Below are positions 7,796 to 44,750 of a stretch of DNA of 64,000 nt, one piece after another. Numbering within the stretch: position 1 is the stretch's first letter; each line of letters opens with the position of its first letter. A program made the translations under genes and the position numbers. Under the pieces are notes generated by a model that saw nothing but the letters and a program-made list of their open reading frames with translations, searched no databases and was not told the DNA's origin. Location: IMG/VR virus record IMGVR_UViG_3300045988_152944, one strand, 5' to 3'. Source of the stretch: a virus.

Positions 7796-9493
7796 TTAGG
7801 CGTTTGCGCTGCCGCCGTTGAGAATAAGTTCATCTCCGTCCGTCTGGACAAGTTTATTCACGTTCAACGCACTGATTTTTGCATCGGTCACTTGACCATC
7901 ACCAATCATCGCTGTCAGTACACCGCCGGTTGCAATCGAGAACTCGCGTTTCTCATTGATGGCAAGACCGCCATTGGTAAGGACATTATACGTAAGAGCT
8001 TCGGGTACGGGAACCGTAACATAAGCTTTCCCATCTTCGTCCAACACAACTGCGTGTTCGTTTCCGCCTTCCGTGTGTCCAAGTTTGATGCCACCAAGAG
8101 CTTCGGTTGTGGCTTGGGGAATCTCAGTCAGTGCGCCCAGATCAGCAGCGGTAATTTCAACAGCTTCAGAACCATTGTAAGTTTTACCGCCCGCCGTTAA
8201 AATGTTTTTAACCGAATCAGCAACACCTGCGTTCGCTACGGCTCCATCAATCAATGTGCCACTCAGTTTGTGATCAGCGTCGATAATGGATTGTTTCTTA
8301 TTGATCTCGCCTTCGAGTTCAGTCTTCGCTCCGCTAACCGCTGTGCTGATTTCACTCGTGACGTCTGCTGATTTAGCATAACCATCAAGAGCTGCCCCAG
8401 TAATGTATGCAGAATTGTCGACTTCATAACCGTCGGCTGTTTTCTTAACAAGACCAGTACCAGTTATAGCGTTTAACTTATCGAGATTCGCGTTGGCAGC
8501 CTGTTTGCCCGCCAGAGCTTCGGCAAGGCCATTGACTTGACCTTGTTCAATTGCGATTGCTTGTTTTTCAACCGCAACTACACCGTTAGTTTCGGAAATA
8601 GATTTGATTGTTTCGCTCGCTGCAACATCAACTTGTGCCAAGATAAGCTTTTTAATCTCATCCGAAAGCGCTTGTGTGGTTACATAACCCGAAAGGTCAA
8701 TATCCGTGTTACCGATCTTTTCAAACTTATCCGTAACCCAAATGTATTCATCATAAATATCTTGAGTGCCGTGTGTGTGTGCTACAAGATAAATGACACC
8801 AGCTTCGCCAGTGGTAGGAAGTTTTTCAACAACCTTGAACTCAACACCCGTGATACCACCAATAGCATCATCAACGTATTTCTTCGTTGCGGGGTTCATA
8901 TTCTCCGTTGGAGCTTGGACTGTTACAGCGCCAGTGAACGCACCACCCGCTTTAGGCATCGCTGCATCTGCGGTGGTCTGTACGGCTTCAACTTCCGTCT
9001 TTTTAGCATATGCGCTGAGATCAATATTTACTTTTTTATCAGCGATTGCAACGTCTGCGCCGTTAACCTGAACACCTTCAAGAACGTTAACCTGTGCGCC
9101 AGCAGCAATACCGTCAAGTTTTGCTTTATCTTCTTTTGACAGGAAACCATCTTTTTCCGTGGTCGCAAGAATAAGTTTACCTTCGATAGTCGTGCAGCGT
9201 GCTTCCAGTGCGCTAACTTTTTCAGCAAGTTCATCTGCACTAGATGCCTGGCCAAACTTCGTAAGCGTCTTGCCCGCGTTGATTTGATAGAGACCAACAC
9301 CAACTGTCGTGTCCTTAACGATCAATAATTGACCAATGTAATATGCACTATCTGCACTACCTACTTCTGCAGCGCCCGCAGCAGCAGTGACAGCATCATT
9401 ATAATTCTCAAAATAGCTGTTAGCATCCAGTGGGAAAGCAGAAGTCCTATTAAAGCCAACAGCAAAATTTAATTTACCAAAATCCATTGACAT
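7796..9493 (-). CDS. tail fibre / tail-associated protein (565 aa)
   Basis: Shares MPKAGGAFTGAVTVQAPTENMNPATKKYVDDAI and YL(V/M)AH(T/S)H..GNTDIDLSGYV modules with the 6092 gene; GGGAGG RBS. Confidence 0.6.
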   Translation of the reverse strand: MSMDFGKLNFAVGFNRTSAFPLDANSYFENYNDAVTAAAGAAEVGSADSAYYIGQLLIVKDTTVGVGLYQINAGKTLTKFGQASSADELAEKVSALEARCTTIEGKLILATTEKDGFLSKEDKAKLDGIAAGAQVNVLEGVQVNGADVAIADKKVNIDLSAYAKKTEVEAVQTTADAAMPKAGGAFTGAVTVQAPTENMNPATKKYVDDAIGGITGVEFKVVEKLPTTGEAGVIYLVAHTHGTQDIYDEYIWVTDKFEKIGNTDIDLSGYVTTQALSDEIKKLILAQVDVAASETIKSISETNGVVAVEKQAIAIEQGQVNGLAEALAGKQAANANLDKLNAITGTGLVKKTADGYEVDNSAYITGAALDGYAKSADVTSEISTAVSGAKTELEGEINKKQSIIDADHKLSGTLIDGAVANAGVADSVKNILTAGGKTYNGSEAVEITAADLGALTEIPQATTEALGGIKLGHTEGGNEHAVVLDEDGKAYVTVPVPEALTYNVLTNGGLAINEKREFSIATGGVLTAMIGDGQVTDAKISALNVNKLVQTDGDELILNGGSANA

Positions 9494-9511
9494 AGTGTAT
9501 ACCTCCCTCTA

Positions 9512-10777
9512 TTATGCTACGGTGAAATGCCACTTGTTCGCTTTGTCGCAAGCTGCAGCATTATCTTTGTAATATACGTTATACGACTTAGCCTCATAGC
9601 CATTCGCACCTTCTACATCCACAGTAATGTGGGTAAATGCGCTGAATGCTTCTGCGTTCAGTCCGTTAACGTCTTTGATTGAATTGATAGTTCTCGGTGC
9701 AGGGACAGCTATGATAACACGCATGTCACCAACAGCCTCTTGAGCATCGCCCGTATTGCCCGCTGAGATTGCTCCATTTCTCTTACCAGCCAAACCTCTG
9801 ATAATCGCACTCGTGGGCGTGCCTTCTTTAGATTTGACACCACCCCAGAAACTGTTTCTATAACCAGTAATAGCACTCGAAGCAGCGCTCTTTGTGCCAG
9901 CCGCAATTTTACCAGCTACGCCCTCAGTCGCACCAAGGTTGTTTTTAGGATCGGCACCGGCCGTGTGTGTAGCAACAACACTGACCTTATAACTGGTACT
10001 GTCACCAACTGTAAACTGAGCAAACGAACCCGTTTCTGTAGTAGCCGTATGCGAATCTGTATCGCTGACCTCATAGGTCGCTGTAATACCCGTGTCTGGA
10101 CCATATTGATAGCTACCTTTGTTAAAAGCCACTGAGTACGCAGGAGTGAATTCGCTACCAACCTCCTTTGCGCCGGCACCGGTTAAACTAATAGACACTG
10201 ACGGTTGGTTTACTGTAGGATTATTGTTAGCTTTTGCGAGCGCTCCTTTTAAGAATTCTTCTACAGACTTACCACTTGCGGGCAGCACAACCGAACCGGA
10301 TGCACCAGGAGCATAAATACCAAACGCTGTGGTTGCTGTGATATCATCTTTAAAATATACATTGCCTGCGTCGTAATTGCCATCCATGGCTTCCCAGTTG
10401 GTCTCGCCGCGTACATATGCAGTATACTGATATTTGCCACCAACCAACGCTTCCCTGATGATCGCAATGTCACCTTTAACAGGCTCTGCAATTTCAGCAA
10501 GCGCTGCCGCTTTGTCACCACCCAACGCGATGTCTTTCTGATAAACATCGGTAGTATGCAAATTTTTGGTAGCATCACCGATTGCTTTTTCGACGGCTGC
10601 CAAATCTACAAATGAAACGGTAATTTCGCTCCAAGTTTTGGTGCCATCGCCAACTTTGAAAATGTGTAAATCGGTATCATAACCAACTTCACCTTTCTTC
10701 AAAACAAGCTTGGAAGCAGCCCAATTGGTGCTGGTGTCATTACGTAAAATTAAAGTAATACGTATTTGTTTCTCCAT
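9512..10777 (-). CDS. tail fibre-like protein (421 aa)
   Basis: N-terminal TNW..KKGE..KVGDGTKTW anchor. Its ATG lies inside the 3' tail of the IscB ORF and has no obvious RBS. Confidence 0.55.
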   Translation of the reverse strand: MEKQIRITLILRNDTSTNWAASKLVLKKGEVGYDTDLHIFKVGDGTKTWSEITVSFVDLAAVEKAIGDATKNLHTTDVYQKDIALGGDKAAALAEIAEPVKGDIAIIREALVGGKYQYTAYVRGETNWEAMDGNYDAGNVYFKDDITATTAFGIYAPGASGSVVLPASGKSVEEFLKGALAKANNNPTVNQPSVSISLTGAGAKEVGSEFTPAYSVAFNKGSYQYGPDTGITATYEVSDTDSHTATTETGSFAQFTVGDSTSYKVSVVATHTAGADPKNNLGATEGVAGKIAAGTKSAASSAITGYRNSFWGGVKSKEGTPTSAIIRGLAGKRNGAISAGNTGDAQEAVGDMRVIIAVPAPRTINSIKDVNGLNAEAFSAFTHITVDVEGANGYEAKSYNVYYKDNAAACDKANKWHFTVA

Positions 10778-12054
10778 AAAATTTTCGGCAAAGGCCCCGC
10801 ATCCCCTTCAGGGGTGTGGGGGAATTGCCTCCTCCTTTCTATTAGTTTTGTTGAATTGTGTCTAATCCTTTTAAGGTTCTTATAACTTATTGAACCATTG
10901 TTTACCTTTTCTCCGTCTAAATTTCTGATATCTAAAAATCCTGATTTGCGTCTACCAAAAATCACATATTGTTTATTTTGATATTCTACCGTATCAAATA
11001 AGTCAAACCCAAAAACGTTGCCAATTAGTTGATTATTCTTTTTATATCCACCCTTTGAAAAATTATTTTTATGGATTTGTCTACTCTGCCTTCTAACACA
11101 CTTTTGATAAATATAATAATCTAAAGACTTCGCCTTTGGATTACCACTTATACACCGAGCATCTATGTAGTGTGCTTTCGGCAGATTATTTTCAATACGA
11201 GTGTTTTTAGTTATATAGCCATATGTTTCGTGGACATTTGAATATAACGCACATAATCTGTCAAATAGCGTCTTACACATAATCCCCATAAACGCAGCAT
11301 CTCGATAACTTTTACCACGTTTGAACTTTAATTCAACTTCGCCCTTGTGATAAGCTTTATGACAAGTTTCGCACAAGGTAATTAAATTATTCGGTGCATT
11401 GCCACCTGCTTTACGACTTTCAATATGATGTACATTTAATACATTATCTTTTGATTTACCGTGGCAACATTGGCATTCGTGGTGATCGCGGAATAATACA
11501 TAGGCTCTCACATTCCAGAAACCTAATTGCTCGCCCTGTTGATATTCTTTTCCCGATATTTCGGGATTGTTTATCTTCTGGATATCGAATTGAGCGGTTT
11601 CGACAATAAGTTTAGTTATCGGTAAAATCGCATACAAGCGTTTTATAACTTGAATATGCGAATTTATCTTTTGTTCAACACTTGGAGCAAGCCATCCTTT
11701 GTGTTTTGAATAAACACGATTGTTAAATCTTGCAGGGCGATATCTCAACCGGTTTCTTCTCGTTCTTCTTGCTTCTCTACGAGATGATAGTTTATTTACA
11801 ATATCATTACGCAATTCGACATCAGCTTCATATAGCACTTGTTTGTCCGTTGTGGCAGAAACACCAATATGCTTACTTCCGACATCAATTCCAAGATTCA
11901 CTTCTTGTGTTTGATTTTCACAATCGAATAATAACTGAATTGTAAACGGTTCGTATTTTACTATTTTTGCTTTATTTTGTTTTAGCAATTTTCTTGCTTT
12001 TGCTTCTTTGCAAGGCATTAATGGTTTGCCTTGTTTGTTTAATACATATACCAT
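10750..12054 (-). CDS. iscB: IscB RNA-guided nuclease (434 aa)
   Basis: N-terminal PLMP motif (GKPLMPC), RuvC-I GIDVGSKHIG, Arg-rich bridge helix RREARRTRRNRLRYR, HNH (VHHIESRKAGGNAPNNLITLCETCH), RuvC-III AHYIDA. Confidence 0.85.
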   Translation of the reverse strand: MVYVLNKQGKPLMPCKEAKARKLLKQNKAKIVKYEPFTIQLLFDCENQTQEVNLGIDVGSKHIGVSATTDKQVLYEADVELRNDIVNKLSSRREARRTRRNRLRYRPARFNNRVYSKHKGWLAPSVEQKINSHIQVIKRLYAILPITKLIVETAQFDIQKINNPEISGKEYQQGEQLGFWNVRAYVLFRDHHECQCCHGKSKDNVLNVHHIESRKAGGNAPNNLITLCETCHKAYHKGEVELKFKRGKSYRDAAFMGIMCKTLFDRLCALYSNVHETYGYITKNTRIENNLPKAHYIDARCISGNPKAKSLDYYIYQKCVRRQSRQIHKNNFSKGGYKKNNQLIGNVFGFDLFDTVEYQNKQYVIFGRRKSGFLDIRNLDGEKVNNGSISYKNLKRIRHNSTKLIERRRQFPHTPEGDAGPLPKILWRNKYVLL

Positions 12055-12320
12055 TGCTTTTATAGCCTCCTATATGTTAGAGTGGTTACTCCACGACAAT
12101 GTTATTCAAAGGTTTTACGTATGCAACACTGTTCCTACCCATCAGAACTGTTTAATCACATACCGCAGAGCGTAAGACTGGAGAGTACATCCTACAGTGC
12201 CTATATATTCTTTGATAACGTAGTGCTCGAAGCACTGAGTCTGATCAACTAGTGAGCTTGAAGCCCACGCCTATTTATGGGCTGGGTAGTTGACAAAAAC
12301 TCCTTTTGAAAATAAATTCG
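12055..12320 (-). ncRNA. candidate IscB omega-RNA (guide plus scaffold)
   Basis: 266-nt ORF-free, relatively GC-rich spacer directly 5' of iscB on the same strand, where IscB omega-RNAs are encoded. Local stems are present, e.g. AGTGCT-TCG-AGCACT. The fold was not verified. Confidence 0.55.
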
Positions 12321-12791
12321 TCACTCACTCAAGGCGTCGCCGCCATTGAAAATGAAATGCTCGTAATTTTGTCCCATGCTTTTATAAGATTTTGTGTCCT
12401 TATCCCAGCAATAGGTTGCTTGTTCTGATAATACAAAGTACACACCACCAACATCGCCCACAGCGGGTAGTTGTTCGCGTGTACTCACTTGAACAGCCCC
12501 TGCGGTAACGCCCGAAGCAGAAATAACATTGTTTTCGTCAATTGTAATACCAGAACCAGCGGTTAATTTTTGTTGATACTTTTGTAGCTCCTCGGTTGAA
12601 TCCAAGGCTATCCAATTAGAACCGTCTGAACGATATAGACCGTTGTGTTCTAATTTCTCCGTTGTGGCACCAAGATGATGATAGATTTTATTATCGCTTG
12701 CGTCCTTCGGAGAAAAAGAACTCAGATCTTTGTTCTCAATTGGAGTGTTAAGCAGCTGATTATAATCAGCAATCATAATTCTTTGAATCAT
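12321..12791 (-). CDS. fibre-associated protein (156 aa)
   Basis: GAGGG RBS; LTAGSGITIDENNVISASG is a fibre-like motif. Confidence 0.5.
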   Translation of the reverse strand: MIQRIMIADYNQLLNTPIENKDLSSFSPKDASDNKIYHHLGATTEKLEHNGLYRSDGSNWIALDSTEELQKYQQKLTAGSGITIDENNVISASGVTAGAVQVSTREQLPAVGDVGGVYFVLSEQATYCWDKDTKSYKSMGQNYEHFIFNGGDALSE

Positions 12792-12794
12792 CTT

Positions 12795-13115
12795 TTAACC
12801 CTCTGTAATTATATAGTAAGCATTTTGAACATATTTTTCCGTGGTCGGTCCCACATACTTAACAAATTTACCAAAAAACTCACTTACGTTCAGCTTGTTC
12901 ATTTCTTCTTCGGTTTTGGCTATAATGGGGTTTTCGATCGAACCAAGTTCTCCAGTACCATTAATTACCTTCCCATACGAATCGTAAGCTGAATAACCCT
13001 TTAAAACCTTGGCCGCATCTGCCTGATTGCCAAGAGGGGTTAATACATAATCTCCTGTTGGACTATAATTATCATTAGTTTGGATAATTAACGTCCCCTC
13101 GTATTTTTGTCCCAT
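12795..13115 (-). CDS. hypothetical protein (106 aa), paralog of the 13176 gene
   Basis: Start moved to ATG 13115 (AGGAGG RBS); N-terminus MGQKYEGTLIIQTNDNYSPTGDY is near-identical to the neighbour. Confidence 0.55.
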   Translation of the reverse strand: MGQKYEGTLIIQTNDNYSPTGDYVLTPLGNQADAAKVLKGYSAYDSYGKVINGTGELGSIENPIIAKTEEEMNKLNVSEFFGKFVKYVGPTTEKYVQNAYYIITEG

Positions 13116-13175
13116 ACTTTCTCCTCCTGCCAAATCACCCATAACCAATAGTGTGGATGCTTTTGCGATAGTTGT

Positions 13176-13394
13176 TTACGCCGCAGGTTCAGGTTCAGGT
13201 TCAGGTTCAGGATCTTTCTCCGGTGCGACATAAGAACCATTCAATACCACGCCCTGTGCTCCATAAGCTTTTTTGCCTTTCAGGATGTCTTCTTCGGATG
13301 CCAGATCAGGTATTGACTCCAAACGATATTCGCCCGTAGGACTATAATTATCGTTGGTTTGAATAATCAGTGTGCCTTCATATTTTTGTCCCAT
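13176..13394 (-). CDS. hypothetical protein (72 aa) with a PEPEPEPEP tail
   Basis: MGQKYEGTLIIQTNDNYSPTGEY; the (AGGTTC)x4 repeat at 13185-13210 encodes the PE repeat. Confidence 0.5.
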   Translation of the reverse strand: MGQKYEGTLIIQTNDNYSPTGEYRLESIPDLASEEDILKGKKAYGAQGVVLNGSYVAPEKDPEPEPEPEPAA

Positions 13395-13404
13395 AATTTT
13401 CCCC

Positions 13405-13731
13405 TCACTTCTTATTTACTTTTTTTGAAAAATCAATAATGAATTCGATTGCGTCGGAAATTTGATCAACCTCATATTGAATACCCAATTCCTTCGCAAA
13501 AGAATCCACAGCTGCCATAACAATTTCTTTTTTTTCTGCCCCAGATTGTCCAGTGGCTTCAGCATCTGCGATAGCCCGTAAAATCATAGGATACAGTTTT
13601 TTCCAATTGCCATCTTTTGCTAATTCGCCAAACTTCTTTTTCAGTTTTGTAAACATTGCAACCATAGCAGTAATCGCAGCGATGACAATACTGACAAGTG
13701 AGACGATTAATCCAATATCTACATTACTCAT
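13405..13731 (-). CDS. holin-like protein (LL-H family-like, 108 aa)
   Basis: Start moved to ATG 13731 (GAGGTGG RBS). One N-terminal TM helix (IGLIVSLVSIVIAAITAMVAMF), then a charged tail with the G..K..A..V..LGI...ISDAIE pattern. Confidence 0.55.
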   Translation of the reverse strand: MSNVDIGLIVSLVSIVIAAITAMVAMFTKLKKKFGELAKDGNWKKLYPMILRAIADAEATGQSGAEKKEIVMAAVDSFAKELGIQYEVDQISDAIEFIIDFSKKVNKK

Positions 13732-13873
13732 GGATTCCACCTCGTTAAATAAAATGATATTTTTATTTGAACCCACACACTGTGGGATTATTTTCGATTT
13801 TAATAGACAAGTGTCTATTTGTAAAAAAGAAAATTGGGGCCATACATAAATGTACGACCCCAAAACCTTTTAA

Positions 13874-14056
13874 TCAGTCTTTTAACTGAAAATATTTGCA
13901 ATTTTCTTTGCAACCATTTGGCACCCAGCATTTCTCATTGTGACAAAATCGCTGAAAAGGACAAACCTCTCCTTTGAGTTTTTCACACACATATGTGTCT
14001 GCGCCACACCCTCTTGCAAATTGGCAAGGATGCAAGGTCCTTTTTGGAAATTCCAT
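13874..14056 (-). CDS. Cys-rich mini-protein (60 aa, 8 Cys)
   Basis: Start overlaps the upstream stop as TAATG (translational coupling); several Cys spaced in short clusters. Confidence 0.45.
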   Translation of the reverse strand: MEFPKRTLHPCQFARGCGADTYVCEKLKGEVCPFQRFCHNEKCWVPNGCKENCKYFQLKD

Positions 14057-30999: not shown

Positions 31000-31230
31000 C
31001 TAGATAGTTCATTGAACTTCTCACGACTAAAGTCGTGAGATTCTTGGGAACTTCCGACCACTGCCGGAATATTTACCAAGCTAACCCCGTCGTCCCAACG
31101 GTTGTTTATATTTAGGCTAATTGTTTAAGCCCTTCATTAAGAATATTTATCGCCGCATTAACATCTCTATCATGATGAGTGTGACAAACGGGGCAATCCC
31201 ATTCTCTGACTTTTAGGTCTTTTGTCTCAG
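31000..31230 (-). ncRNA. candidate TnpB omega/reRNA (overlaps the tnpB 3' end; bounds approximate)
   Basis: Downstream of the stop: perfect hairpin CTCACGAC-TTTA-GTCGTGAG (31020-31039) plus TTCCG..CGGAA and CCGT..ACGG stems, in the position expected for the right-end guide RNA scaffold. Confidence 0.5.
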
Positions 31231-32209
31231 TGTTCTTATATCCACAAACGCTACAAGTCTGCGAACTCGGGAAGAATTTGTCAACTTTAATAACCATTCT
31301 TCCATACCAACGTGCTTTATACTCCAACTCTCTTACAAATTCTGACCAAGAAACATCATTGATTGCTTGCGCGAGTTTGTGATTTTTAACCATATTTTTT
31401 ATTTGCAAATCTTCAAGACAAATCACATCATTTTCTCGAATGATAACTGTTGAGAGTTTTTGTAGAAAATCTTTACGTTGATTTGAAATTTTCTCATGCA
31501 ATCTCGCGACTTTTATTCTTGCTTTGTTACGGTTAGAACCATCTTTTGATTTTCGAGATAATTCTTTTTGTAACTTTGCAAGTTTATTTAACGAGTTTTT
31601 GAGATATTTCGGATTATTGACAACCTCACCATCGCTCGTGATACAAAACTCTTTAAGACCCAGGTCTATGCCGACCACATTGTTTGTAATCGGCAATGGT
31701 TGTATATCCACATCCACACAGCACAACGAAACGTAGTATTTTCCGCTGGGCTCTTGTGAAACCGTCGCGTTTACTATTCTACCTTGTGGTACCAACTTGT
31801 TTTTCGTTTTTACCAATCCAAGTTTTGGAAGTTGAATGTAACCGCCAAGATATTTTATGGTGCCATTCCTATATTTAGAGTTGTAAGAATATTTATGAGT
31901 TTTCTTACTTTTGAAATTTGGAAACCCAGCGTGTTCTTTAAAGAACTTTTTATAAGCATTGTCTAAATCTTTGAGAGAAGATTGAAGAGCAGTGGAATCA
32001 ACTTCTGTAAGCCATTCAAGTTCAGCTTTTAGTTTAGTCATCGCTTTCGAACATTGAACGTAAGTTATATTTTTCTTTTCGGTTTTATATAATTCAATCT
32101 TTTCAGCAAGATACTTGTTATATACAAATCGGCAACAACCAAATGTTTTTGCAATTATTTCTTTCTGCTTTTCGTTTGGATATATACGATATTTATAAGA
32201 TTTTTCCAC
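31112..32209 (-). CDS. tnpB: TnpB RNA-guided endonuclease (365 aa)
   Basis: N-terminus YKYRIYPN..Q, RuvC D (GIDLG) and E (VICLEDL), zinc finger [25 protein letters not shown] start with AAAGGAGG RBS. Confidence 0.9.
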
Positions 32210-43517: not shown

Positions 43518-44009
43518 ATGTCTATTAAAATCAATCAAATTGCAGCAACCGCCAACATCATCAACGCTCTCGATGCAATGAAAGCAGACGAGAACATCAG
43601 CCTCGGCATCGAAGAAATCGAGTTTCCTGATGGAAGCAAAGAGAAATTCTATTACAACGGCGAGTCCGACAAACAAGCAGCCGTGCACTTCGCACAGATT
43701 TGCATCGATGTTTGCGCCGGCGACAGCGACAAAGCCAAACGTATGATGGCTTCGTGTTTCAAACTTCTCACTAAAGGCTACAATGTCGACGAAATTGTCC
43801 CGTCTGCGGAAAGCGAAATCAACACCGAAACTTATATTGATTATAAGAAAGGTGTCTTGCTCACGCCGTACGCGTCGGTTGTCGCGTCTCTCACCGAGGA
43901 TGAACTCAAAGCAACAAAGGGCAAAAAGAATCCCCTTACCAAATCACTCTTGCTCGAAAGATCGAGAACTGATTGTTTAGAAGACGCTCTTAAATATTAC
44001 GAGAGCTGA
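43518..44009 (+). CDS. hypothetical early protein (163 aa)
   Basis: AAAGGAGG RBS. Confidence 0.65.
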   Translation: MSIKINQIAATANIINALDAMKADENISLGIEEIEFPDGSKEKFYYNGESDKQAAVHFAQICIDVCAGDSDKAKRMMASCFKLLTKGYNVDEIVPSAESEINTETYIDYKKGVLLTPYASVVASLTEDELKATKGKKNPLTKSLLLERSRTDCLEDALKYYES

Positions 44010-44156
44010 ACCCCGCAAGGCCCGCACGAAAGTGTGAACGGCGCAAGCCCGTTGCCCTCTTAGGAGGGTGGCGCTCATGGTGTTCATAATGGCATCATCT
44101 TCGTAAAATAAAAATCTTGCTAATCGAAGACTAATGGCATAGAAAGGAGAATCATT

Positions 44157-44750
44157 ATGAAAAATTATATTATTGCAACCGTCAAGGCAACCTTCTACAA
44201 TGTAGAAAAACAAGTTCCAGTTGCCCCGACCCATCCGATGGACCAAAATGAATGGGACGAGAATGTCGTCACTGAAACGGTATTCCAAAATGTAGTGGAG
44301 GAATTCCACTCCTTGCCGCGCAGGAACACTGCCGCAGCAATGGAAGAGGCTAAATGGCTGGCACTTCGTAAAGGTTGGTCAATGCAACGCAACGATTACG
44401 AGATCGAAATCGAAGAACTGCCTACCAAGGCGGTGTCAGTTTATGAGGAAGAAGACCTCGTAAAATTGTATCAAGGTAACAAAGTTGAAAAATTCGCTTT
44501 GTTGCAAAATCTTGTCCCTGGACAAGAAATCAAATCATATACCAAACGTTATTGGATGTTAAATCCTCAAACGTTTGAACCCGTCCGTACGACGGTGACG
44601 ATGTACAAAGAAGGGAATATCAACCCCGACTTCGAAAACGAAGAGGGTACTGGGAAATGGTATTATCTAAATGAAGAAGAGTGCCTCTTCACCGGCGACG
44701 AGAGCTGCCGCAAACATATCAATAAACACCGCAATATTTGGTTGTTTTAA
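44157..44750 (+). CDS. hypothetical early protein (197 aa)
   Basis: AAAGGAG RBS. Confidence 0.65.
   Translation: MKNYIIATVKATFYNVEKQVPVAPTHPMDQNEWDENVVTETVFQNVVEEFHSLPRRNTAAAMEEAKWLALRKGWSMQRNDYEIEIEELPTKAVSVYEEEDLVKLYQGNKVEKFALLQNLVPGQEIKSYTKRYWMLNPQTFEPVRTTVTMYKEGNINPDFENEEGTGKWYYLNEEECLFTGDESCRKHINKHRNIWLF

Follow-up and report, generated by a model that had tools for sequence, protein, structure and literature searches.

An IscB/omega-RNA insertion in an SPbeta-like gut phage and its proposed spread by RNA-guided homing

Cas9 descends from IscB. What IscB does in nature has been demonstrated solely with chromosomal elements, which restore themselves once they have been excised. The stretch of viral DNA analysed here (64,000 nucleotides, IMG/VR record IMGVR_UViG_3300045988_152944, referred to as the window) carries an IscB gene in its tail-fibre region. 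Which parts of this locus are foreign to the phage, does the nuclease appear functional, and how did it come to lie there? An earlier note, made from the letters alone, had described an apparently intact nuclease with a candidate omega-RNA, placed exactly between two structural genes.

The source phage is an uncultured SPbeta-like human-gut phage. No match to GenBank phages was found by megablast for window positions 9000-13500. The cultured phages with TerL matches, all of them Firmicutes phages, show no more than 25% identity in this protein. A YonO-like RNA polymerase is also encoded by the phage. The neighbours of the IscB locus were identified by PHROG and Pfam searches as tail and tail-fibre genes, in agreement with the earlier note. 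The gene directly downstream (9512-10777, minus strand) is a tail-fibre gene that matches PHROG tail-fibre families and the Pfam domain Mtd_N and is uninterrupted in relatives.

The nuclease and its guide RNA

The 434-aa open reading frame (10750-12054, minus strand) matched the NCBIfam guided_IscB equivalog model with 374 bits (cutoff 175), Pfam RRXRR with 225.7 bits (RRxRR region at aa 92-106), and the solved IscB structures (OgeuIscB) with E=1.8e-46. The alignments to the NCBIfam model and to OgeuIscB start at residue 1-2. All motifs quoted in the earlier note were found in the proposed domain order: PLMP at aa 11-14, GIDVGSK at aa 55-61, an Arg-rich stretch at aa 90-110, HHIESRK..NLITLCETCH at aa 209-232 and HYIDA at aa 295-299; the Pfam HNH domain (aa 194-237) lies between RuvC-II and RuvC-III. 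Residues D57, E152, H209/H210, N223, H232/H236, H295 and D298 were invariant in the alignments, and D57, E152, H295 and D298 aligned to the active site of the split RuvC domain of OgeuIscB. Judged by these alignments, among them the comparison with OgeuIscB that the note had suggested, the frame is an IscB with all RuvC and HNH catalytic residues. The conserved core comprises aa 1-408 (10831-12054), and dN/dS over these 408 codons was 0.03-0.13 in six copies. Alignments to the solved IscBs stop at about aa 340; the region aa 303-408, which may hold the TAM-interaction domain expected at the C-terminus of an IscB, is conserved within the family and under purifying selection, and the C-terminal tails beyond the core vary between copies. 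An AlphaFold2 model built with 36 close homologues aligned had a pLDDT of 44 and a pTM of 0.28 and was discarded.

The spacer 5' of the gene (12055-12320, 266 nt), suspected in the note to encode the guide RNA, was searched with covariance models. Cmscan placed a full-length HEARO RNA (RF02033, model positions 1-211) at 12082-12294 on the minus strand; its score of 133.4 bits (E=1e-28) exceeds the gathering threshold of 83, and this confirmed the suspicion. The scaffold ends 27 nt from the IscB ATG on the same strand, and the same RNA was found upstream of every sister IscB examined.

Because the scaffold abuts phage DNA, the guide is predicted to consist of the 16 transcribed nucleotides that directly precede it, TTCAAAAGGAGTTTTT (12295-12310, minus strand), the length of 16 nt being assumed from published IscB work. 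These nucleotides lie just beyond the right end (RE) of the element, directly 5' of HEARO model position 1. A sigma-70 promoter scan around the guide gave 12 sites where 9.4 were expected, which is not above chance, and yielded no assignable promoter; the scan is uninformative because of the YonO-like RNA polymerase in the same phage.

Empty alleles and the fibre start codon

In more than 25 related phage contigs the stop codon of the upstream gene lies 26 nt from the fibre ATG, with no insert between them. The empty sites of relatives read AAGGAGTTTTT followed at once by ATGGAG. Comparison of empty and occupied sites, together with the sister copies, delimited an element of 1517 bp (10778-12294, minus strand) with its left end (LE) at 10778 and RE at 12294 and with no target-site duplication; T runs at both junctions leave a formal ambiguity of 0-4 nt in these ends. 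The element begins with GTCAACTACCC at one end and finishes with GCCGAAAATTTT at the other. In sister copies located elsewhere the similarity begins exactly at GTCAAC, and the GCCGAAAATTTT end is common to them. A second occupied genome (L254) has identical junctions and an element that is likewise 1517 bp long. The segment is thus an insertion, located between the Shine-Dalgarno sequence and the ATG of the fibre gene and oriented in the same direction as the gene. The possibility that the ATG is part of the element was rejected, since empty sites already have the ATG and no duplicate is present. A search for a near-isogenic empty genome, by looking up the exact fibre protein, returned occupied contigs only.

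Pfam searches with the 89 ORFs of the window detected no Y1_Tnp or serine resolvase domain, and a screen for TnpA motifs was also negative, so the absence of TnpA from the window stated in the note was upheld. The element is therefore a non-autonomous member of the IS200/IS605 type (ISC/IscB class).

The comparison with insert-free phages, which the note had recommended, gave the guide and the TAM as well as the ends. The 16-nt guide matched 16/16 at the empty sites of five contigs (L040, L041, L043, L047 and L048), where ATGGAG follows at once; these are 5 of the 10 contigs encoding an identical upstream protein. At most of the empty sites sampled the allele is AGTTT, which has four mismatches to the guide. 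The guide-matching TTTTT coexists with mismatched AGTTT and AATTT alleles, and in this neighbourhood no other 100 nt are as poorly conserved as the intergenic stretch that the guide matches. A search of the window for further close matches to the guide, which would be self-targets, found none. Where the site is occupied, GTCAAC and not the TAM comes after the guide match, hence the element's own locus is not a self-target. Any insertion would, by its geometry alone, produce such a match between guide and empty site; the match indicates that the anatomy is right and is not independent evidence of activity.

The flank directly after LE reads ATGGAG, which places the TAM side of the target at 10773-10777 (minus strand) with the sequence ATGGA (TCCAT on the IS top strand). 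The ATG of this TAM is the start codon of the fibre gene. An ATGAA-like motif abuts LE in about 25 sister copies, most of which have ATGAA and others ATGAG, ATGAC, ATGGA or ATGGG. ATGAA is the reverse complement of TTCAT, so the TAM of the family equals the experimentally determined TAM of GstIscB (PMC10055086). GstIscB is reported to be sensitive to TAM mutations (PMC10055086), and since the window has ATGGA and not the usual ATGAA, this copy might cut poorly. The coincidence with a start codon was not peculiar to the window: of 16 distinct ATGA sites, 15 had an ATG that opens an ORF of at least 53 aa, as against 22% of control ATGs, and in nearly all copies the next gene starts at the ATG of the TAM. 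Within the final 20 nt of the 5' flank, 13/44 distinct sites had a Shine-Dalgarno motif (controls 16%). This modest enrichment suggests that wedging between Shine-Dalgarno sequence and ATG is typical of the SPbeta-like lineage and not of the whole family.

IscB genes of this family normally stop at the TGA of ATGA. In the window a G follows the ATG, and the frame consequently extends by nine codons. Its last 26 codons cross the LE hairpin, and the final nine plus the stop lie inside the fibre gene, overlapping it by 28 nt including the stop (fibre ATG at 10777-10775); the note had rightly observed that the frame runs past this ATG. The note had also remarked that the fibre gene has no ribosome-binding site of its own and that native signals may have been displaced. 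The gene seems to lack one because its native Shine-Dalgarno sequence, AAGGAG (12300-12305), is now on the far side of the insert, within the guide; the uninterrupted arrangement in relatives bears this out.

The element may bring a replacement. Where the conserved IscB coding region ends, next to the hairpin, there is a Shine-Dalgarno-like sequence, GGAGGAGG (10828-10835, minus strand), which may serve the fibre gene as a ribosome-binding site in place of the native one; AAAGGAGG is kept in all sister copies, and its distance from the next ATG is 8-9 nt in two of them (L018 and L022). The imperfect subterminal hairpin that the note had suggested as a possible transposon end was located at 10787-10829, at the left end of the element, by folding of both strands, and it is common to sister copies. 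Its z-scores are modest, -2.1 when folded as RNA (-25.9 kcal/mol) and -2.4 for the DNA of the + strand (-13.6 kcal/mol), and it is conserved in four copies, mainly by one-sided or G-U changes. At the other end the first HEARO stem could act as the RE subterminal hairpin; in IS200/IS605-type elements TnpA recognises hairpins of this kind. A search of IMG/VR with the LE pattern TTTGYCGAAAATTTT gave more than 120 matches, of which one was relevant (L141); the pattern was too unspecific.

Probable spread of the element between phages

The family is abundant: IMG/VR contains at least 361 loci, and over 8000 proteins in databases match at E≤1e-30, nearly all of them unnamed. Copies with different guides occupy many loci of the same phage lineage, and there are degraded derivatives, three of them cut down (L017, L019, L022) and one miniature (L141). 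At the site studied here the element is polymorphic for presence and absence; the empty allele is the predicted target and the occupied allele is not. Occupied genomes were assembled from several independent samples (L035, L038 and L254), in one case (L035) with a coverage, taken from the contig name, of about 120, which speaks for the viability of phages with the insert. ERZ28620746, ERZ27274190 and ERZ1026868 are examples of samples with this phage, and its exact upstream protein is indexed in 70 blocks.

The element was compared between the window and L254, whose backbones are 92-94% identical over about 19 kb. It differed at 10 of 1517 positions (0.66%) and the adjacent 1-kb flanks at 136 of 2012 (6.8%; Fisher p=3e-23), a comparison that rests on one pair of backbones. 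The near-identity stops at most 45 nt to the left and 20 nt to the right of the junctions. The fibre flank of the window is closer to that of an empty-site contig (L040, 96.8%) than to that of the occupied L254. The low divergence of the element relative to its flanks points to recent horizontal spread, most simply read as RNA-guided homing; ordinary recombination of mosaic phages, or precise excision in some lineages, could add to the incongruence. In another phage group, which has a 67%-identical IscB, 13 same-site pairs were compared and showed a divergence of the element no lower than that of the flanks, which indicates that homing is not evident everywhere.

Taken together, these data make it probable that the locus is an IscB and omega-RNA insertion in an SPbeta-like gut phage that spreads by RNA-guided homing. 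In the proposed mechanism, read-through of the late structural operon would yield the omega-RNA, and the IscB-omega-RNA complex would cut the empty allele, in which an ATGRA-type TAM comes after the target. The cut would be made either in a sibling phage infecting the same cell or once the element has been excised. With the occupied allele as repair template the element would then be copied in, and competitors would be removed or converted by the same process. The first arrival at a new site would require a Y1 TnpA acting in trans. Fibre expression may be kept by translational coupling to IscB, by the terminal GGAGG, or by both, with the LE hairpin bringing this GGAGG near the fibre ATG.

The same cut would also be made if IscB were kept mainly for destroying or out-competing insert-free siblings by marker exclusion, so that the phage as a whole would benefit; for this reason such a weapon and selfish homing are indistinguishable on the present data. 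In the siblings the predicted cut falls where translation of an essential fibre gene is initiated, and phage homing endonucleases are known to act as weapons of this kind (review PMC13565253). The coexistence of matching and mismatched alleles in the least conserved stretch of the region is compatible with an arms race, but the intergenic region may just evolve faster. Furthermore, IscB binding has been reported to be mismatch-tolerant, so the other alleles may not be escapes. A role principally as a weapon is rather unlikely.

It is improbable that the element, although a genuine IscB/omega-RNA insertion, is now inert and owes its distribution to vertical inheritance and ordinary phage recombination, with no RNA-guided cutting. 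Inertness would fit the missing TnpA, the uncommon TAM, the loss of the IscB stop at the boundary with entry of the frame into the fibre gene, the decay of sister copies, and the lack of a homing signal in the other phage group. It is contradicted by the intact catalytic residues and low dN/dS, by an omega-RNA that scores 50 bits over threshold, and by an element whose divergence between two backbones is a tenth of that in both flanks.

Transposition without homing, in which a TnpA supplied by the host or by another element placed the element at this site independently in different phages and IscB merely restores the element after excision, would account for the many copies with different guides, which require real transposition at some time. 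TnpA-less iscB loci are also the rule: tnpA is found near about 1.5% of them, and about 98% are non-autonomous (PMC10055086). However, the two backbones have flank SNPs in common (for example G at 12319), and a 5-nt TAM occurs thousands of times per genome, so that two independent insertions at the same nucleotide are very unlikely without homology-directed copying. There is only a slight chance that transposition alone was responsible. An ordinary protein-guided phage HNH homing endonuclease with an unrelated RNA upstream, suggested by matches to PHROG families 119 and 2214 (annotated only 'HNH endonuclease'), was ruled out by the PLMP motif, the RuvC-I/II/III split, the equivalog score, the match to IscB structures and the HEARO RNA.

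Known systems and the meaning of the locus

The element is a further member of the known IscB/HEARO class. Its RNA is a full-length member of the HEARO family (RF02033; Weinberg et al. 2010), with the HNH ORF directly downstream. The closest parallel is the ISGst5-type IscB of Geobacillus stearothermophilus (Meers et al. 2023, PMC10055086), likewise a non-autonomous IS200/IS605-type element in which HEARO is bounded by RE, the guide comes from outside the element, and the element is co-oriented with the upstream gene. The TAM lies next to the left end in both, TTCAT there corresponding to ATGAA in the present family, and the catalytic numbering is nearly identical (D58/H209/H210 there, D57/H209/H210 here). 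In contrast to that chromosomal element, the present one is phage-borne, has no cognate TnpA in the window and has ATGGA (TCCAT) as TAM. It also sits on a start codon, and its nuclease ORF enters the next gene. The likely substrate here is a co-infecting sibling genome, whereas there it is the sister chromosome after excision.

OgeuIscB (7UTN, 7XHT, 8CSZ) has the same order of PLMP, RuvC-I, bridge helix, RuvC-II, HNH and RuvC-III; the catalytic residues align (E about 1e-45), and in both systems a large omega-RNA stands in place of a REC lobe. OgeuIscB is longer (496 aa as against 434 aa), local identity is moderate and the C-terminal region is not alignable by sequence; its TAM, NWRRNA, is unlike the present one (PMC12660989).

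The free-standing HNH and GIY-YIG homing endonuclease genes of T4-like phages (Seg, Mob), known for intronless homing, are also intergenic selfish nucleases between conserved structural genes, with presence/absence polymorphism in related phages, expected spread in mixed infections and short co-conversion tracts. In those systems the protein recognises the target, whereas here a guide RNA and a TAM would do so; the insertion itself splits the target, and self and non-self are thereby told apart. IStrons (IS200/IS605/IS607 plus a group I intron) are, like the present element, OMEGA elements with built-in harmlessness to the interrupted gene. They achieve it by RNA splicing, whereas here docking on a start codon, the ATGA overlap and an element-borne Shine-Dalgarno sequence are suggested, with no ribozyme.

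The locus offers three natural states of one site, namely occupied, guide-matching empty and mismatched empty genomes, and together with the transfer signature these allow tests of RNA-guided homing and of competition between phages. It bears on the extent of guide mismatch or TAM change that shields a target from cutting, and on how an insertion remains harmless when it separates a ribosome-binding site from the start codon it serves. It also supplies a compact nuclease of about 410 conserved residues with a defined natural, predicted guide/TAM pair.

More tentatively, with the chances somewhat below even, the large clade of gut-phage IscBs may consist of TnpA-independent RNA-guided homing elements for compact phage genomes, which dock on start codons through the ATGAA/TTCAT TAM in the direction of transcription. 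If so, the essential gene downstream would be translated by coupling, the IscB ORF ending in the TGA of ATGA or shortly after it, and the displaced native Shine-Dalgarno sequence would become part of the guide. Such elements would spread from phage to phage in co-infections by cutting the uninterrupted initiation region, and would be a natural case of 'non-restorative transposon homing', which for phages has so far been theory only.

The inserted element and its ends

The 434-aa ORF at 10750-12054 (minus strand), in which an earlier note had recognised an apparently intact IscB, was real and contained all the motifs quoted for it. It matched the Pfam profiles RRXRR (225.7 bits) and HNH and, over residues 2-302, the NCBIfam equivalog for the RNA-guided endonuclease IscB (374 bits, cutoff 175). 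The comparison with characterised IscB proteins proposed in the note aligned it with solved structures including OgeuIscB 7UTN and 7XHT (E ~1e-45 to 1e-46). When the protein was aligned with sister copies and 35 database homologues, RuvC residues D57 and E152, HNH residues H209/H210, N223, H232 and H236, and RuvC-III residues H295 and D298 were unchanged, and these coincide with active-site residues of OgeuIscB. For the C-terminal region, where the class has its TAM-interaction domain, the sequence match ended at about aa 340 and the AlphaFold model had a pLDDT of 44. The conserved part stops at residue 408 (...ERR); the tail beyond it is read-through of the left-end hairpin and varies from copy to copy. 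Six copies at different loci gave dN/dS values of 0.03-0.13 and dS values of 0.4-1.7. By these values the protein is under strong purifying selection and its copies are old.

The suspicion that the 266-nt spacer 5' of the gene encodes the omega-RNA was correct. A full-length HEARO RNA (Rfam RF02033) was found at 12082-12294 on the same strand (133.4 bits, gathering threshold 83); HEARO is the omega-RNA of IscB (PMC10055086, PMC13565253). TnpA was absent, as the note had stated: none of the 89 window ORFs encoded a Y1 transposase, and no serine resolvase was detected among them.

The claimed insertion was checked against relatives without the insert. The empty sites of five related contigs (L040, L041, L043, L047 and L048) read TTCAAAAGGAGTTTTT followed directly by ATGGAGAAAC, joining the window's left flank straight to its right flank. 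The element is therefore the 1517-bp segment 10778-12294 (minus strand), inserted without target duplication, with a formal ambiguity of 0-4 nt due to T-runs at both junctions. In all empty relatives compared (six IMG/VR contigs, eleven metagenome contigs and ten contigs with an identical upstream 156-aa protein) 26 nt separate the stop codon of the upstream gene from the fibre ATG. The six IMG/VR relatives have a tail-fibre protein 90-95% identical to that of the window and a nucleotide identity of ~83-91% over the locus. Sister IscB plus HEARO copies (79-92% identical) occupy other loci of the same phage lineage. Their similarity to the window starts exactly at HEARO position 1 (GTCAAC or ATCAAC), the sequences upstream being unrelated, and several share a left end made of a hairpin followed by GCCGAAAATTTT.

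Contig L038 (ERZ28620746 scaffold_22, 139 kb), 100% identical to the window over 5.4 kb, stops at its 1-141 end inside the HEARO RNA, 141 nt upstream of the IscB ATG, which suggests an assembly problem at the repeated omega-RNA sequence.

Guide, TAM and docking on start codons

The 16 nt adjoining the HEARO scaffold (12295-12310, minus strand; TTCAAAAGGAGTTTTT) are the predicted guide, the length being that of the IscB literature. At the other end the flank opens with the fibre ATG (ATGGAG), and in the sister copies an ATG invariably follows the left end directly. The large majority of these flanks read ATGAA; variants are ATGAG, ATGAC, ATGGA and ATGGG. Reverse-complemented, ATGAA gives TTCAT, which experiments identified as the TAM of the Geobacillus ISGst5 IscB, written 5' of the IS left end (PMC10055086). 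The window's ATGGA is an uncommon variant, found also in the related contig L141; sensitivity to TAM mutations has been reported for GstIscB (PMC10055086).

The insertion parts the Shine-Dalgarno of the fibre gene from its start codon. This explains why the gene, as already remarked, has no ribosome-binding site of its own: the native one lies inside the guide, beyond the insert. The stop codon of IscB coincides with the TGA of the flanking ATGA in 43 of 73 full-length copies, and 426 aa, the commonest length of database homologues, fits such a stop. The window has G as the fourth base, so that a Trp codon (TGG) stands in place of the stop and the IscB frame runs nine codons on into the fibre gene; read-through past ATGG explains the overlap between the two genes, which was confirmed and measures 28 nt. 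Of 16 distinct ATGA sites, 15 have an ATG that begins an ORF of 53 aa or more; among control ATGs the share is 22%. We infer that insertions would survive in so compact a phage genome only where they dock on start codons along the direction of transcription, and that coupling to IscB would then provide for translation of the downstream gene. The conserved terminal AAAGGAGG may help translation too, as the folded hairpin would bring it to ~9 nt from the ATG. None of the papers in the collection searched linked IscB with translational coupling.

Spread and decay

The element is also present, with identical junctions, in L254, a 116-kb contig from another sample whose backbone is 92-94% identical to the window over ~19 kb. 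The two elements differ at 10 of 1517 positions, all within the first 525 nt, whereas 136 of 2012 positions differ in the adjoining 1-kb flanks (Fisher p=3e-23), where the closest differences lie 45 nt away on the left and 20 nt away on the right. L035, a partial locus from a third sample, matched the window throughout the 486 nt of element covered, and its fibre gene had 153 differences over 1750 nt. In its fibre flank the window is nearer to the empty-site L040 (96.8%) than to the occupied L254. Such incongruence between element and flanks, seen in one pair of backbones (window and L254), is what homology-directed copying into the same site would predict. Ordinary recombination, or precise excision in some lineages, could lie behind the same pattern, and 13 same-site pairs from a different phage group with a 67%-identical IscB gave no homing-like signal. 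Independent transposition to the same nucleotide in both phages is very unlikely because the TAM has only 5 nt.

Most sampled empty sites carry other guide-region alleles, AGTTT or AATTT, with 4 mismatches, and locally the 100 nt with the lowest conservation are those of the intergenic stretch matched by the guide. As IscB is reported to bind in spite of mismatches, these alleles may not be escapes.

The IscB ORFs of three contigs (L017, L019 and L022) are truncated. L141 (IMG/VR contig 3300045988_176671) contains at 527-855 a 328-bp miniature in which a complete HEARO (140 bits) is combined with the 8 initial IscB codons and the left end. Truncated and miniature copies of this kind form the pattern expected of a selfish family. 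The miniature lies between AGGTGAGGTACACT and ATGGAAAAT and has a good TTGACA-17-TAATAT promoter upstream of it; its phage also has the truncated copy L017. The IscB copy of L018 (2719-4280 of IMG/VR contig 3300045988_178591) lacks a left-end hairpin and interrupts a Zn-ribbon gene after 22 nt. Beyond the copy, the Shine-Dalgarno and first 22 nt of the interrupted gene recur in slightly altered form, making a 36-nt duplication joined at AAGGAG microhomology, which insertion by a Y1 transposase would not create.

The phage and the class of the element

The element's neighbours are tail and tail-fibre genes and a holin-like gene; Pfam also identified an integrase and a methylase in the window. 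Related contigs encode Pfam domains named after SPbeta proteins (YonB, YonD, YomU tube, YomW), no cultured phage has a large terminase more than 25% identical to that of the window, every match being in a phage of Firmicutes, and the close relatives all come from human-gut metagenomes. The phage is therefore an uncultured SPbeta-like gut phage of ~116-141 kb, presumably with a Firmicutes host. One window ORF matches Pfam RdRP (PF05183, E=3.8e-10) and probably encodes a single-subunit RNA polymerase resembling YonO of SPbeta, in which case late promoters would not be of the sigma-70 type.

Upstream of the insertion, the small adjacent ORFs 12795-13148 and 13176-13394 (minus strand) both have N-terminal MGQKYEGTLIIQTNDNYSPTG and thus appear to be tandem paralogues. 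The early or replication half of the phage contains a twister-sister self-cleaving ribozyme (Rfam RF02681; 64.1 bits, threshold 34) at 44008-44087 (plus strand), flanked by ORFs 43518-44009 and 44157-44750. A second OMEGA-type gene, encoding a 365-aa TnpB (31112-32209, minus strand; Pfam HTH_OrfB_IS605, OrfB_IS605 and Cas12f1-like TNB, phrog_506 at 474 bits), immediately precedes an exonuclease gene, and no TnpA was found near it. L041 and L043, whose fibre site is empty, carry at 835-1929 another TnpB, which shares 39% identity with that of the window, between a tube-like gene and a 108-aa gene; the window equivalent, ~13863-14056, is empty. At least three distinct OMEGA elements, all polymorphic for presence/absence, thus occur in this phage population.

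The element belongs to the IscB/HEARO class of non-autonomous IS200/IS605-type elements. At the sequence level all testable defining features of the class were found apart from two: the C-terminal TAM-interaction domain, for which alignments and structure model gave no confirmation, and TnpA, which is missing from ~98% of iscB loci anyway (PMC10055086). Phage IscB-like genes were already known as database objects under the label 'HNH endonuclease' (PHROG 119 and 2214). Such a gene is present in 35 GenBank phage records, and relatives of this IscB occur in at least 361 IMG/VR stretches and among more than 8000 database proteins. What is new is a phage-borne element defined to the nucleotide, with natural guide-matching empty sites; a family-wide habit of start-codon docking with stop/start overlap; and a population pattern that points to recent horizontal spread at one and the same site. 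In a 2026 review (PMC13565253), OMEGA elements homing into co-infecting phages figure as no more than a theoretical possibility. The element could serve as a natural test bed.
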